This document shows, in pieces, positions 1 to 6,735 of a stretch of 64,000 bases of DNA. Below the pieces are notes generated by a model. It was given only the letters and a program-made list of their open reading frames with translations. It had not been told where the DNA came from and searched no databases. The stretch's first letter is position 1. Every line of letters starts with the position of its first letter. This DNA is from an uncultured delta proteobacterium. Lineage in GTDB: Bacteria; Bdellovibrionota; FAC87; UBA2466. The position numbers and the translations under genes were made by a program. The stretch covers positions 194,607 through 258,606 of the forward strand of contig CAVZSV010000004.1 in the NCBI GenBank assembly GCA_963778115.1. The letters run 5' to 3'.

Positions 1-40
1 CAGCACCAGCAATCTGATTTCTTGATTTCTGAACCCAAAG

Positions 41-100
41 GCTAGAGCTACTGCTAGCGCTAGTGATCAAGGTGTCCGCTTCGCGGACAACATTTCAGTT
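41..100 (+). repeat. Degenerate hexamer tandem repeat (GCTAGN x4) + GATCAAGG + small hairpin; left end of a four-helix-bundle-gene element
   Basis: GCTAGA GCTACT GCTAGC GCTAGT GATCAA GG..; homologous to 6627-6685. Confidence 0.7.
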
Positions 101-171: not shown

Positions 172-315
172 ATGGCGTTCATGTTTGAAAAACTGGAGGT
201 TTATCAAAAATCACTGGACTGGGTTCAACTCGTCGAAGGCTTGATAAGAGACGCCACAAAAGGTGTCACTCTCCTTTCGGGCTCAAAAGGTACGGGTCAT
301 ATTTCGAAAAGATGA
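172..315 (+). pseudogene. Four helix bundle protein (23S rRNA IVP / TIGR02436-like), N-terminal fragment truncated by hairpin element
   Basis: AAGGAG RBS, then MAFMFEKLEVYQKSLDWVQLVEGLIRD.. (FEKLEVYQKS family start); the frame runs into the repeat at 254 and stops at 315. Confidence 0.75.
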
Positions 316-377
316 CCCGTACCTAAAGGGCCCGCAAGGCTAATCATGGATCTGAAAGTGTCACTCTCCTTCCGGGC
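254..377 (+). repeat. 124-bp direct repeat copy 1 (hairpin element type A + start of type B)
   Basis: Identical to 1158-1281; inner 13-bp stem AGGTACGGGTCAT/ATGACCCGTACCT. Confidence 0.95.
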
Positions 378-449
378 CCAAAAAGTACGGGTCATCGGTC
401 GTTAGACATGACCCGTTCCGAAAGGGCCCTAAAGGAGAGTCACACCTTT
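355..449. repeat. ~95-bp nested palindrome, type B copy 1 (REP/REPIN-like)
   Basis: GTGTCACTCTCCTT..GGGCCC..ACGGGTCAT loop ATGACCCGT..GGGCCC..AAGGAGAGTCACAC; 2 mismatches vs 987-1078. Confidence 0.9.
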
Positions 450-509
450 TCCCCTTTTCCATTGACATCACGCATCCCCCTTCCTTATATCGCTTCCAAA
501 GGGGGGTCT

Positions 510-980
510 ATGAGACTTCAGACGGCTCTTTTGATCTTGATACTTTCTCTGTCTGAGATCGCTCAAGCGTCTAAGCATAACGTGTTTGTTTGCAAGACGG
601 GAAACCGATCCATTGCCAATGGTTATTATCTCTTTGCCTATGATGAAAAAGGAGCCATTACCAAGGGCAACCGGGCTGGATATTGCGAGATTACTATCAG
701 TGCGGATGGTAAGCCCTTTGGGGAATACTGGTGCTGGGTCGCGGACACTGAAACCGCGAAGACCGAGGAAGGTCAGCTCGCGATCCTATTTAAAAAATCA
801 CTAGGTGACGGGGCCTATCTTTATACCCAGCTGAACCTGCCTGCTACTCTCCTAGAGGACAAACGAGGCGAAGGACGATACCGAACGCTGAGCCGCCATC
901 CCAAGGACCTCGAGAAATCTCTTTCTCAGAAAGAAGATGTGATTAGCTGCGAAGAAGAGTCGGTCGAGTTTACGGAATAG
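510..980 (+). CDS. Hypothetical secreted protein (156 aa) flanked by hairpin elements
   Basis: GGGGGG RBS then MRLQTALLILILSLSEIAQA signal peptide; TTGACA at 462; the ORF-track start at 408 lies inside the repeat. Confidence 0.8.
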   Translation: MRLQTALLILILSLSEIAQASKHNVFVCKTGNRSIANGYYLFAYDEKGAITKGNRAGYCEITISADGKPFGEYWCWVADTETAKTEEGQLAILFKKSLGDGAYLYTQLNLPATLLEDKRGEGRYRTLSRHPKDLEKSLSQKEDVISCEEESVEFTE

Positions 981-983
981 GAG

Positions 984-1078
984 AAGGTGTCACTCTCCTT
1001 CCGGGCCCAAAAAGTACGGGTCATCGGTCGTTAGACGTGACCCGTTCCGAAAGGGCCCTAAAGGAGAGTGACACCTTT
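984..1078. repeat. ~95-bp nested palindrome, type B copy 2
   Basis: Perfect 17-bp outer arms AAGGTGTCACTCTCCTT/AAGGAGAGTGACACCTT, starting 3 nt after the stop at 980. Confidence 0.9.
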
Positions 1079-1090
1079 AAATTTAAAAAT

Positions 1091-1219
1091 ATGAGTTTAG
1101 GAGACGCTCTCAAAAAGGCCGGGCTTAAAAGCAGTGAGATGAAACGCAAGGAAGCTCCCACAAAAGGTGTCACTCTCCTTTCGGGCTCAAAAGGTACGGG
1201 TCATATTTCGAAAAGATGA
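1091..1219 (+). pseudogene. Short 5' gene fragment (MSLGDALKKAGLKSSEMKRKEAP) truncated by hairpin element
   Basis: Protein-like N-terminus running into the same CCACAAAAGGTGTC junction as the 172 fragment. Confidence 0.4.
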
Positions 1220-1281
1220 CCCGTACCTAAAGGGCCCGCAAGGCTAATCATGGATCTGAAAGTGTCACTCTCCTTCCGGGC
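1158..1281 (+). repeat. 124-bp direct repeat copy 2 (type A + partial type B left arm)
   Basis: Identical to 254-377. Confidence 0.95.
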
Positions 1282-1537
1282 TTCCCCTAGCGTGGGGAAG
1301 AAAAAAGAAGGCTGAACAACAAAGCAAAAATACTTAAGATCAGCATAAAAACTGCGCCAAAATGCTCGAAGACTTTTTTAGTCTTCCAATCGCGGGCCAA
1401 TTCCCGAAAACACACCTGCATCGTAAGTCTGTGCTCCTGAAGTGATCAGTTGGGGAGTCGATGCGTCGCCTGCGGCGAGTTGGATATCAACGATCGTGGA
1501 AGCACTCTTCGAGTTCAAAACGTGCATCTGCGAAATA

Positions 1538-1882
1538 CTACATGGCCCCCATCGCTCTCACTTCCATGATTTCCACCGAGGCCCGAGGAATTCCCAAATG
1601 AGGGTGCTTTTCGAAAGCCTTTGCGGCCGCTTCATGCGATTCAGCCTCCACAAACGAATACAACATGATTTCGTTTCTCGTGTCCGATGTACCCTCAGAG
1701 GAAACACGCTTGGTCCTGCCTCCGGCCGCCGTTTCCTTTATCATCGTTGCATGATCGCTCATCCATTTTTGCCACTCTGCGCGCATTTTTTCTTCGGCCG
1801 ATTTTCTTTTGTCGGGATCGGTCTTCTTCCAATCGTCAATCACGGTTGTCGGCGCGAGATATAAAACAAGAAATTTTTTCAT
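1538..1882 (-). CDS. YCII/DGPF-related small protein
   Basis: MKKFLVLY..W.KW..H...G.TKRV...YS.VEAES.E.A...F..HPH pattern; AAGGAG RBS. Confidence 0.7.
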   Translation of the reverse strand: MKKFLVLYLAPTTVIDDWKKTDPDKRKSAEEKMRAEWQKWMSDHATMIKETAAGGRTKRVSSEGTSDTRNEIMLYSFVEAESHEAAAKAFEKHPHLGIPRASVEIMEVRAMGAM

Positions 1883-1945
1883 AAAAGTCTCCTTGGAATA
1901 GAAATTCTACATGCTAGTCATAAATCTGCAACCTAGTCGTCCTTT

Positions 1946-2845
1946 TCAAACGATATAGCCTTTCATTTTCGCTTCGATCCATGCCATCAATAACTGAACT
2001 CTACGCGCTAGATTTCTGCGATGGGGGAAAATCAATGAAACGGGCATGGGCTCGGCTCGATATCGGGGAAGGATCTCAATTAGCTCCTTCTTAAGAAAAT
2101 GAGACTTCACCGCCACTAAGGGGGTTTGGATGATTCCGTGCCCAGCCAAACATGCCGAAAGGTAGGCCTCCGAATTATTTACGGTCACTCTCCCGTTCAT
2201 CCTCACGTTTCTAGGCCTCTCCCCATCGAAATACTCGAAACCTTCTGGTTTTGCCCCTAAGTTAGCGGCGTAGTGGACCAACTCGTGTTTTTCCAAATCT
2301 TTGGTCTGCTGGGGAATACCTTTCTTCTTGAGATATTTACGGCTCGCGCAATTCACGAGGGTAAGCTTTCCCAAACTCCTTACCATTAACCCTGAATCTG
2401 TGAGCTCCCCAACCCTAATCACACAATCAAAGCCCTCTCGGATTAAATCCACTCTTCTGTCAGTGCTACTGAGTTCGATCTCCACTTTGGGGTGCTTATC
2501 CAAAAACTCAGACAGCCGGGGAACTATTAAACTCTTAGCGATACCGTTAGGCATATCGATACGAACACGCCCGGCAACTTGCTTTGCCTCCCCCTGAAAC
2601 AAGGATTCAGCTTCTTCAATATCAAAGAGAATGTCCTTGCAGCGATCGTAGAAAATCATTCCGTCTTGAGTCATTTCCACTCGGCGTGTCGTTCGATGCA
2701 GCAGCCTAACCCCCATTAGGGATTCTAGTTGTTGCAAATAAGTAGAGATGCTGGCCTTGGGCATTCCGAGACTCTCCGCAGCTTTGGTGAAGCTCGAAAG
2801 TTCCGCTACTCGAGTAAAGATTCTAAAGGCTTCTAGTTTATCCAT
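1946..2845 (-). CDS. LysR family transcriptional regulator (CrgA-like)
   Basis: N-terminal HTH SSFTKAAESLG..LLHRTTRRV; DLIREGFDCVIRVG. Confidence 0.95.
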   Translation of the reverse strand: MDKLEAFRIFTRVAELSSFTKAAESLGMPKASISTYLQQLESLMGVRLLHRTTRRVEMTQDGMIFYDRCKDILFDIEEAESLFQGEAKQVAGRVRIDMPNGIAKSLIVPRLSEFLDKHPKVEIELSSTDRRVDLIREGFDCVIRVGELTDSGLMVRSLGKLTLVNCASRKYLKKKGIPQQTKDLEKHELVHYAANLGAKPEGFEYFDGERPRNVRMNGRVTVNNSEAYLSACLAGHGIIQTPLVAVKSHFLKKELIEILPRYRAEPMPVSLIFPHRRNLARRVQLLMAWIEAKMKGYIV

Positions 2846-2855
2846 TTGAGGCTAC

Positions 2856-2878
2856 ATTATTCGTATTTCGCGAACAGT
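2856..2878. promoter_or_regulatory. Putative LysR operator (T-N11-A dyad)
   Basis: ATTATTCG-N7-CGAACAGT between divergent lysR and SDR. Confidence 0.5.
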
Positions 2879-2970
2879 ATAGTCAATATACGGTTATTTA
2901 TACCATTACGCCGAACTGTTAATTTTAAGCCGCGAAAGCAATCAAGCTTTCTCGTTGAAAGAGGAACCAA

Positions 2971-3723
2971 ATGAAAATTGCATTAATAACCGGCGCAAGT
3001 CGGGGACTTGGACAAAACACAGCGTTAAATTTGGCCAAACAAGGGATTGATGTGATCCTTACCTACAAAACCAATCAAAAAGAGGCGGAGCAAGTGGTTG
3101 GTCAAATTCAAAAACTCGAACGAAGGGCGGTTGCTCTGCCCTTAGACGTCGGTGACACGAAGTCCTTCAATGAATTTGTTATCCACGTTATGAGGGTTCT
3201 CAAATCGTCTTGGGACAGAGATTCATTCGACTATTTAATCAACAATGCGGGGATGGGAAAGTACGCTTCGATTTCGCAAACAACGGAAGAACAATTCGAT
3301 GAGCTGATGAACGTCCATTTTAAGGGAACCTTTTTCCTGACCCAAAAACTGCTGCCATTAATTGCCCAGAACGGCCGCATCATTAATCTTTCGAGCGGGC
3401 TTACTCGCTTTGCAACTCCCGGGTACGCCGCTTACGCATCGATGAAAGGTGCGATCGAGGTCTTTACTAGATACCTGGCGAAGGAATTGGGAAGCCGTGG
3501 CATCGCCGTCAATACGGTAGCCCCTGGGGCCATCGAAACCGATTTTGGGGGAGGCTTAGTCCGCGACAACCAAGAAGTAAATGCTCACATTGCTTCTCAG
3601 ACTGCCCTAGGCAGAGTCGGAGTGCCCGATGATATTGGTGGGGCAATTGCCAGTTTGCTGCTGGAAGAGAATCGATGGGTAAATGCTCAAAGAATTGAGA
3701 TCTCTGGCGGAATGTTCTTGTAG
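2971..3723 (+). CDS. Short-chain dehydrogenase/reductase
   Basis: TGASRGLG, NNAG, YAAYASMK motifs. Confidence 0.95.
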   Translation: MKIALITGASRGLGQNTALNLAKQGIDVILTYKTNQKEAEQVVGQIQKLERRAVALPLDVGDTKSFNEFVIHVMRVLKSSWDRDSFDYLINNAGMGKYASISQTTEEQFDELMNVHFKGTFFLTQKLLPLIAQNGRIINLSSGLTRFATPGYAAYASMKGAIEVFTRYLAKELGSRGIAVNTVAPGAIETDFGGGLVRDNQEVNAHIASQTALGRVGVPDDIGGAIASLLLEENRWVNAQRIEISGGMFL

Positions 3724-3727
3724 ACAG

Positions 3728-3776
3728 AAATTGGGAGCAGTCAACTTTCGGTGCCAAAGGTTGACTGCCCCGATTT
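3728..3776. terminator. Long inverted repeat between convergent genes (terminator or REP-like)
   Basis: AAATTGGGAGCAGTCAACTTT / AAAGGTTGACTGCCCCGATTT. Confidence 0.6.
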
Positions 3777-3786
3777 GAAATGTCTC

Positions 3787-4362
3787 TTACTCGCAAACGA
3801 ATTTAATGCTCGTATTGTCTACGAGATTCGAATGTCCCGTGTCGTCATCGGGCTCTCCCACCGAAGCGGTCCAGATACGCGCCTTCACTGAGTTTTTCTT
3901 GTGGGCTTTAAGAGCAGCCTCATCCACATAGAGGTAGAAATGGCTACCATAAGAGTCGTCCACGACCGAGACGGCGTCGTTCACGAACACCTCTTGTGGG
4001 GCAGCCTTACCCTTCTTCGCTTTCTTCCCCTTCTTGACTCGACTTGTAGCAACTTTCTTTTTTAGTTCGATGGAAGATTCCTGTTTAAATTTGTCCTCAC
4101 CGAGAGCTACGGGAAGCGTGATGGCTTTACCCTTGCTATCAGCGAGCTTGAGGGTTGCCTTATTTCCCTTAACGTCAATGGTAATGGTCTCCACTGAGAT
4201 AAGATCTTCAAAATCGGGATCTCGATCTTCTGCTTCCACCTCGGTCTTAACGTCATCCTTGCTGCAAGAGATCTCAACCGCGCTAGCGCGTTCACAAGTC
4301 GCGCTGATTCCGACTCCCAACACAAGCAGTCCGCTCAAAATCAACTCTCCACGTACGTTCAT
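3787..4362 (-). CDS. Hypothetical secreted protein
   Basis: GAGGAT RBS, hydrophobic signal region, Lys-rich insert. Confidence 0.7.
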   Translation of the reverse strand: MNVRGELILSGLLVLGVGISATCERASAVEISCSKDDVKTEVEAEDRDPDFEDLISVETITIDVKGNKATLKLADSKGKAITLPVALGEDKFKQESSIELKKKVATSRVKKGKKAKKGKAAPQEVFVNDAVSVVDDSYGSHFYLYVDEAALKAHKKNSVKARIWTASVGEPDDDTGHSNLVDNTSIKFVCE

Positions 4363-6600: not shown

Positions 6601-6626
6601 GACGATATTTGCCCTCTCAAAAAAAT

Positions 6627-6735
6627 GCTAGGGCTAGTGCAAGAGCTAGTGATCAAGGCTTGCACTTCGGCACGACATCTCACTGAAGGCGGATTTTAGA
6701 TGTCATCCCTCACTAGCACTAGCTTTAGCCGTAGC
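6627..6735. mobile_element. 109-bp MITE-like element with inverted terminal GCTAGN hexamer arrays
   Basis: Left GCTAGG GCTAGT GCAAGA GCTAGT GA; right (revcomp) GCTACG GCTAAA GCTAGT GCTAGT GA; internal GACATCT/AGATGTC; left end homologous to 41-100. Confidence 0.6.

Follow-up and report, generated by a model that had tools for sequence, protein, structure and literature searches.

A hairpin array around a secreted-protein gene in a Bdellovibrio-like bacterium resembles a decayed cluster of REPIN-type mobile repeats

In Pseudomonas fluorescens SBW25, doublets of repetitive extragenic palindromic (REP) sequences form hairpins, called REPINs, and the REPIN-RAYT system (RAYT, REP-associated tyrosine transposase) of this strain is described with ordered REPIN clusters and duplicated flanking sequence (Bertels and Rainey 2011, PMC3116915). 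The rayt genes have REPs in inverted orientation on both sides (Nunvar et al. 2010, PMC2817692). The E. coli REPtron, TnpA-REP with its REPs and bacterial interspersed mosaic elements (BIMEs), is represented by PDB 4ER8 (Corneloup et al. 2021, PMC8266576). In TIRtrons, RAYT-like TIRYT genes lie between long inverted repeats, some with moderately abundant families of terminal inverted repeat (TIR) dimers, and a GGGGWSAS motif is described (Di Nocera et al. 2013, PMC3733652). REPs are also targeted by an insertion sequence (IS) of the IS4 family, ISRm22 of Sinorhizobium meliloti (Tobes and Pareja 2006, PMC1525189). Here, we describe an array of hairpins around a secreted-protein gene in a 64,000-nt stretch of DNA (the window; positions 194,607 to 258,606 of contig CAVZSV010000004.1, assembly GCA_963778115.1) from an uncultured delta proteobacterium of the Bdellovibrionota. 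An initial annotation of the window proposed that the hairpins may be recombination sites of an undescribed gene-capture or shuffling system. We think it likely that the five hairpins are mobile repeats of the REPIN or TIR-dimer type piled up around an ordinary secreted-protein gene and are not a new gene-capture system.

A hairpin family and the gene between its halves

We found five copies or part-copies of an ~95-nt three-tier hairpin at 258-1281 of the window. Our repeat search and folds agree on this point with the initial annotation, which had described an array of nested-stem hairpins at these positions. In single-stranded DNA folds, B1 (354-449), B2 (983-1078), and A1 (258-339) formed nested outer, middle, and inner stems. 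The fold energies were -28.2, -36.0, and -25.8 kcal/mol, with z-scores of -6.8, -10.0, and -7.4, respectively, and none of 200 shuffles was equally stable. An Rfam scan found no family near its gathering score (best, 26 bits versus 92).

We built a family profile from nine complete copies and searched the 5.1-Mb genome with nhmmer. The 96 hits fell in 50 intervals and resolved into 33 elements on five contigs, once IS-split pieces were joined and four isolated weak hits (E 0.17 to 0.74) were dropped. The unit consists of two inverted ~45-nt halves. Each half reads GGTGTCACTCTCC, 5 variable nt, GGGCCC, AAAAGG, and TACGGGTCAT and contains its own small imperfect palindrome, CCTTCCGGGCCCAAAAGG. 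Among ten aligned copies, variation lies in the loop and in the 5-nt stretch between the outer and middle stems. Because the stems are almost invariant, we found little covariation in them, and the evidence for the hairpin structure is the palindromy itself. The left flanks of the copies are mostly AAAG or AAGG, with GTAG in a few.

We then asked where the elements sit. Nearly all those tested were extragenic (24 of 25), and 12 of the 25 lie within 20 nt downstream of the stop codon of an open reading frame (ORF) of at least 100 aa. Since this is the usual position of the family, the placement of B2 directly after a stop codon is the family's habit and not a cassette boundary. Genome wide, the expectation that copies bracket single ORFs held in part: the copies are clustered and some form brackets, but most are dispersed in intergenic DNA, typically after stop codons and several genes away from the next copy, a pattern that the initial annotation had itself assigned to ordinary REPs rather than to gene capture.

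At the edges of several copies, we also observed short tandem duplications (about 10 to 20 nt) of the end of the outer arm plus flank, e.g., GTAGAGGTGTC GTAGAGGTGTCAC. They were seen at C6:660992-661109, C5:199600-199640, C6:650560-650620, and C5:98800-98860 (positions outside the window are given by contig) and at L206:2470-2620 and L207:1955-2105. These duplications may be a footprint of the unit's insertion or slippage at the base of the hairpin.

The initial annotation had supposed that a recombinase, of the HUH or the tyrosine type, might be encoded elsewhere in the genome, next to some of the copies. We found a gene of the HUH type. A 232-aa ORF (C7:316953-317651) is located exactly between a complete left half (C7:316946-316992, + strand) and a complete right half (C7:317677-317728, - strand) of the hairpin element, and these halves are 97% complementary over 38 nt. 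The protein matched the NCBIfam profile REP_Tyr_transpos (NF047646) with an E value of 7.9e-15 across positions 8 to 146 of 146. The motifs N-H-x-H and K-Y-x-x-R-N-P (H61-x-H63; Y120..R-N-P) were invariant in 11 aligned homologues. A search of PDB sequences with the protein gave no meaningful match. In its AlphaFold (AF2) model (pLDDT, 83), the top PDB fold match was 4er8_A (E 1e-8; TM 0.74 on the target), a RAYT in complex with a REP hairpin; ISDra2, IS608, and IS200 TnpA came next. Based on its sequence and model, we concluded that the C7 gene encodes a predicted RAYT/TIRYT-like HUH-Y1 transposase.

The genome contains six RAYT-like matches, and the C7 gene is the only one flanked by this hairpin repeat. 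This points to the C7 gene as the candidate cognate enzyme of the hairpin family, with one enzyme per repeat family. The five further matches are located at C6:718110-718766, C6:554393-554995, C4:624496-624831, C6:485474-485809, and C4:1531591-1531914. We found that the first of these has its own flanking inverted repeats, GAAAGGTGCCCGTCGACTTTCAGGACC, with 16 motif matches and that the second also has its own, AAAGGTACGGCCTACCTT, with 55. Because both of the other paralogues that we checked carry their own repeats, the genome runs at least three such repeat systems.

Homologues of the C7 protein (E <= 1e-10) were present in 27 of the 41 genomes searched, its own included. We examined 12 transposase loci, our own and 11 in relatives, and all 12 were flanked by inverted repeats of 20 to 76 nt. 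The sequence of these repeats is lineage specific. Their layout is common: an outer block, a small palindrome, and then GGTAG, in place of which our family has GGTAC. The closest homologue, in relative G025, is 48% identical and is flanked by a related half, which is also present in that genome as about five doublets. We found the hairpin repeat itself in 4 of 40 relatives (G006, G025, G012, and G001), with one to four matches each; most of these genomes are fragmented metagenome-assembled genomes (MAGs). Half-sites in the relatives are mostly single +/- doublets, 50 to 170 nt apart, at separate loci. The repeat was also found on three metagenome contigs, two of which carry same-loop sister copies at different loci, and this argues for real dispersal of the ~95-nt unit. 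A pattern scan of genome contigs returned 112 stretches; those listed were nearly all single matches in unrelated taxa, which we read as chance. One Bdellovibrionales MAG had only a partial look-alike of the hairpin.

These features fit the published REPIN-RAYT and TIRtron-TIRYT class, and the system is not the undescribed one that had been suggested. TIRtrons as described in PMC3733652 are the closest published match. As in that description, an HUH-Y1 gene lies between ~45-nt inverted repeats, the same repeat occurs as dispersed dimers and clusters in tens of copies, and one genome has several such genes with different repeats. The outer motif here, GGTGTCAC, is one base off GGGGWSAS. Unlike those TIRtrons, the system occurs in a Bdellovibrio-like lineage, which we did not see listed in PMC3733652. 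With the SBW25 REPIN-RAYT system, as the cited account presents it, our family shares inverted doublets, long hairpins whose ends are conserved and whose spacer varies, extragenic positions, a single cognate flanked transposase, and ordered clusters with duplicated flanks. It differs from SBW25 in having about 33 copies rather than hundreds, a GTAC tag rather than GTAG, a transposase below the NCBIfam RAYT cutoff, far stronger clustering, and two sister pairs that enclose ORFs. Measured against classical REPs as they are characterized in these papers, the family lacks GTAG next to the palindrome and has fewer than the >100 copies, and it fits the TIRtron description better. The E. coli REPtron, as reported in PMC8266576, is similar in its HUH and Tyr motifs, in being the best fold match (4ER8), and in its single-stranded hairpin substrate, which the C7 enzyme would probably share. 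Unlike the REPtron protein, the C7 protein has an extra ~90 C-terminal residues, and sequence identity between the two is 15%; the REP here corresponds to a 45-nt half, which forms three stems together with its partner half.

The array in the window and an insertion sequence that targets the hairpin

The hairpin family is the target of an IS4-family IS of 1485 to 1496 bp, which encodes a 472-aa transposase with Tnp_DNA_bind, DDE_Tnp_1, and Tn5-dimerisation domains. We found that all 11 copies of this IS are inside this hairpin, at GGGCC/NNNNN/GGAGAG or at the mirror position in the left arm (C1:22086-23570; C4:578083-579567, 660394-661889, 1109064-1110548, 1837494-1838989, and 2650608-2652092; C5:98857-100352 and 196973-198457; and C6:50600-52092, 650620-652104, and 652167-653662). 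A twelfth copy is truncated (C4:1427201-1427456). A 5-nt flanking repeat is present at 9 of the 11 copies. The two copies without it look like products of recombination between two IS flanking a hairpin core, an arrangement that is still present at C6:650620-653662. The IS ends, GGCTAATCATTGATC... and ...GATCCTTAGCC, are unlike those of the hairpin, and we therefore take the hairpin to be the target and not an IS derivative. ISRm22, as described in PMC1525189, is likewise an IS4-family element, and the targeting of a single repeat position by all 11 copies here, with a short direct repeat, is similar. Unlike ISRm22, ours is another IS in another host, and it also explains scars in the window array.

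All features of the array are on the + strand. It begins with the first copy of an exact 124-nt repeat (254-377), which comprises A1, an IS scar, and the first 24 nt of B1. A1 (258-339; nhmmer E 3e-21, profile 5 to 86 of 102) has the left outer arm and the middle and inner stems. In place of the right outer arm, it ends in GGCTAATCATGGATC (338-352), of which 14 of 15 nt equal the left end of the IS, at the normal insertion point of the IS in the right arm. B1 (nhmmer E 6e-28) and B2 (nhmmer E 1e-28) are both complete REPIN-type hairpins with two inverted ~45-nt halves; B2 begins 3 nt 3' of the stop codon of the 156-aa ORF between them (ORF156) and is followed by TTTAAATTT. Next are a 79-nt spacer (1079-1157) that is unique in the genome and the second copy of the 124-nt repeat (1158-1281), with A2 (1162-1243), the same scar GGCTAATCATGGATC (1242-1256), and B3 (1258-1281). 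B3 is a 24-nt left-arm stump that ends where the IS inserts in left arms.

The repeat search of the window confirmed that 254-377 and 1158-1281 are identical, a direct repeat with 100% identity over 124 nt. It also showed that B1 and B2 are sisters in direct orientation (97% identity over 96 nt on the same strand and 72% on the opposite strand). Their flanking of ORF156 had been described correctly; we counted three mismatches between them rather than two. A1 and A2 had been taken for full copies, which the missing right outer arms and the IS scars contradict, and the partial nature of B3 was borne out. From the sequence, scars of the IS would explain both the loss of the right arms of A1 and A2 and the end of B3.

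The array has the appearance of a REPIN cluster that has decayed and been duplicated locally. According to this model, the five hairpins would belong to one family of miniature nonautonomous palindromic repeats of the REPIN or TIR-dimer kind. By analogy with TnpA-REP and IS200/IS605 TnpA, the C7 enzyme may bind the folded single strand, cut it with its tyrosine, and rejoin it, and in this way the unit would spread into intergenic DNA. An IS4-family IS that targets the hairpin would have inserted and later have been lost with neighbouring DNA, leaving the 15-nt scar in the A copies and truncating B3. The 124-nt piece would then have been duplicated 904 nt away. The resulting X-Y-X layout fits homologous (Campbell-type) integration or excision of a 904-nt circle, gene conversion, or duplication plus deletion. 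B1 and B2, on the two sides of a resident accessory gene, would have arisen by a recent local duplication or be a pair shaped by gene conversion, with B2 probably also serving as a terminator or mRNA-stabilising hairpin. The cassette-like look would then be a by-product of the decayed, locally duplicated cluster.

ORF156 (510-980) starts ~60 nt after B1 and has an N-terminal signal-peptide-like segment. As originally described, a TTGACA hexamer resembling a -35 element lies upstream (462-467), and B2 follows the stop after 3 nt; a G-rich ribosome-binding site (RBS) is at about 500-505. A consensus promoter scan did not call the TTGACA at 462-467 as a promoter. ORF156 matched no Pfam or NCBIfam family, and a word-indexed search with the protein returned only itself. 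Because nine other proteins match it at E <= 1e-10 among 1.84 billion representatives, ORF156 appears to be a real gene of a rare protein family. We found no homologue in 40 relatives, and one of 400 other genomes of the phylum had one. The gene is single copy in its genome, and the GC content of the region equals that of the genome. We also observed that the ORF156 sequence matches repeated stretches (up to nine) within giant proteins of 980 to 2900 aa in the representative library, and ORF156 may be a free-standing copy of a repeat domain from large surface proteins.

Upstream of the array, 172-253 (+) is a probable 5' fragment (~27 codons, with a good AAGGAG RBS) of a four-helix-bundle gene ("23S rRNA IVS protein," PF05635-like) that runs directly into A1. 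Its reading, MAFMFEKLEVYQKSLDW..., resembles by eye the N termini of intact PF05635 genes in this genome (tblastn E 0.18). A 47-aa ORF at the fragment had no Pfam match, and we looked downstream for the rest of the gene and found none. The stretch is probably, with weak statistical support, the start of a four-helix-bundle gene cut off by the repeat array. PF05635 genes or fragments are located at C1:106725-107036, C4:1668063-1668374, C4:1836352-1836666, window 172-253, C4:2907993-2908301, and C4:193102-193356; four of the six are within 1.5 kb of the hairpin family, a distance that covers 1.5% of the genome, and a fifth follows a palindrome that belongs to the repeat family of another RAYT.

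A second small repeat family, of short GCTAGNGCTAGTG-type repeats followed by GATCAAGGTGTGCGCTTCGCGCAC (a GC hairpin), has seven motif matches in the genome, including window 37-97 and ~6623-6682 and C4:1881071-1881184, 2360669-2360705, and 2472472-2472522. A tRNA-Glu gene (C4:192862-192936) lies 1.7 kb before the window begins; after it come palindromes, a four-helix-bundle gene, and a gene for a secreted protein. The array may be part of a variable region that follows a tRNA gene; we saw no integrase near the tRNA-Glu gene in the 8 kb examined.

Single genes between hairpins and competing explanations

Four non-transposase ORFs in the genome are each enclosed by two elements. These are ORF156 (window 510-980), a DoxX-like gene on C1, a 326-aa secreted-type ORF on C5, and a 226-aa ORF (C4:1422554-1423234) between a partial and a full copy. 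The C5 pair (C5:196951..198532 with 199526-199619) has 1 mismatch in ~93 nt when the IS is left out together with its 5-nt repeat. Like B1 and B2, it is in direct orientation, and at 3 of the 4 ends of the two pairs the ORF ends 3 to 9 nt from the hairpin. The C1 DoxX bracket consists of non-sister copies. A Xer-like recombinase gene is ~1 kb from the C5 pair; we dropped a link between the two, the gene being of housekeeping type and following the fliA operon.

Several observations weigh against our interpretation. When 19 aligned copies were compared in all 171 pairings, B1/B2 and the C5 pair were the most alike, and no other pairing exceeded 84% identity. The ORFs that these two pairs enclose are both lineage restricted, with homologues of ORF156 in 0 and of the C5 ORF in 1 of 40 relatives (27% identity). 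A purely incidental origin does not predict that the sister pairs are the ORF brackets. We also found that the elements cluster. Counting the window's cluster as a single locus gave 29 loci. Of these, 23 have another locus within 20 kb, where random placement predicts 5.6, and 9 have one within 2 kb, where it predicts 0.64; none of 5000 permutations reached either value. With ~33 copies, the family is well below the >100 typical of classical REPs, and the canonical GTAG tag is GTAC here (GGTAC, against GGTAG in the relatives' families). The C7 protein scored 55 bits against the NCBIfam cutoff of 80 and 19.8 bits against the Pfam Y1_Tnp cutoff of 23. Finally, the exact 124-nt repeat could have arisen by any of several mechanisms.

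In a different model, hairpin pairs are the working ends of single-gene composite units. The RAYT-like enzyme would take the first hairpin's left half and the second hairpin's right half as ends, in the way it would treat the halves at its own gene, and so move or copy the enclosed ORF; in a variant, a gene would insert at a hairpin and the whole hairpin would be duplicated. Direct sister-hairpin pairs would then mark single-gene units copied or delivered by the enzyme, and this domesticated repeat system would double as a small-scale shuttle for genes of secreted proteins and other accessory genes. We regard this model, with its variant, as unlikely. Consistently with it, the two most similar of the 171 pairs are direct and enclose one ORF, 3 of 4 ORF ends lie 3 to 9 nt from the hairpins, both ORFs are secreted type and lineage restricted, and the copies are clustered. 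The transposase gene itself has the arrangement half-gene-half. In two relatives, other ORFs share this layout with the genome's own RAYT-flanking repeat: a 106-aa cupin ORF between inverted halves with 45-nt arms at 98% (G012:C13:52247-52912; L171 448-1113) and a 150-aa secreted ORF between inverted halves with 43-nt arms at 84% (G001:C145:3383-4119; L172 484-1220).

Other results argue against movement of genes by the enzyme. No enclosed ORF was found at two loci, and ORF156 is single copy in a region whose GC content equals that of the genome. None of six loci of cupin homologues in other genomes had flanking inverted repeats, and the locus of the lone ORF156 homologue of the phylum (G252) had no flanking repeats. 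We saw no doublet-gene-doublet arrangement in G006 (~14 doublets) or G025 (~5). In the 20-kb cluster at C4:1827702-1847862, copies are 0.2 to 7 kb apart with from none to several genes between them. The C1 bracket is not a sister pair, a hairpin next to a stop codon is the norm for this family, and the IS scars point to unrelated rearrangement.

An empty site in a relative had been named as a further sign of gene capture. We found no empty/filled pair in the relatives and metagenome contigs searched. For the G012 cupin, the adjoining genes were not syntenic in 11 other genomes. A search for an empty site with window DNA from 1282 to 3800 found nothing in four relatives. The neighbouring 114-aa ORF had one homologue (G003) among 25 relatives, in a different gene context, and a 29-nt left-flank pattern had no match in metagenome contigs. 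No capture is needed to explain the sister pairs: a hairpin copied locally to the far side of a short gene, or gene conversion between neighbours, accounts for them. In our literature search, we found no paper on RAYT-driven movement of enclosed genes, and we do not claim that it is absent from the literature.

The exact 124-nt repeat, and hence the A2/B3 part of the array, could instead be an assembly artefact. In favour of this, the two copies are 100% identical. However, the contig is 2.98 Mb long in an assembly of eight contigs, so that it was probably built from long reads, for which 1 kb would be no obstacle, and a real structure also fits the 79-nt spacer and the flanks, which are unique. 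We consider an artefact improbable.

We attach almost no weight to the idea that the hairpins are attC-like sites of an integron-type system with a tyrosine recombinase. The attC sites of integrons, which are recognised in folded single-stranded form, resemble the hairpins in length, in being imperfect palindromes, and in directly following ORFs. The GTTAGAC reported in the B loop is indeed there (401-407 in B1) and fits GTTRRRY. However, it is in the loop rather than at the palindrome ends and occurs only in B1 and B2 among ten aligned copies, a chance feature of one sister pair's loop. No IntI match reached the cutoff: the best TIGR02249 score was 76 bits versus 265, and the matches are Xer-like genes, the best of them beside a flagellar operon. 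Unlike an integron, the family has no attI and no ordered array, its copies being on five contigs, and its halves flank a gene for an HUH transposase rather than a tyrosine recombinase. For practical purposes, the loop motif, the missing IntI match, and the HUH gene between the halves refute this reading. Equally negligible is the proposal that the hairpins are miniature inverted-repeat transposable elements of the adjoining IS4-family IS: the IS and the hairpin always occur together and A1 and A2 hold 15 nt of an IS end, but the two have different ends, the IS breaks into the hairpin at one set position within it and has a 5-nt duplication at 9 of 11 copies, which is the signature of a target and not of a parent, and the hairpin halves flank the Y1 transposase gene instead.

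Taken together, these results add a well-delimited RAYT/TIRYT-type repeat system in a Bdellovibrio-like lineage, in which the repeat, the candidate cognate gene, the co-varying flanks of relatives, and a parasitic IS are defined. Such repeats and an IS homing to them together make a locus into a mosaic that looks like a gene cassette. One regularity stands out: the youngest copies are those that enclose single accessory ORFs. If it were true that the enzyme moves genes, REP-type systems, which are usually seen as noncoding passengers, would gain a role in gene flux.

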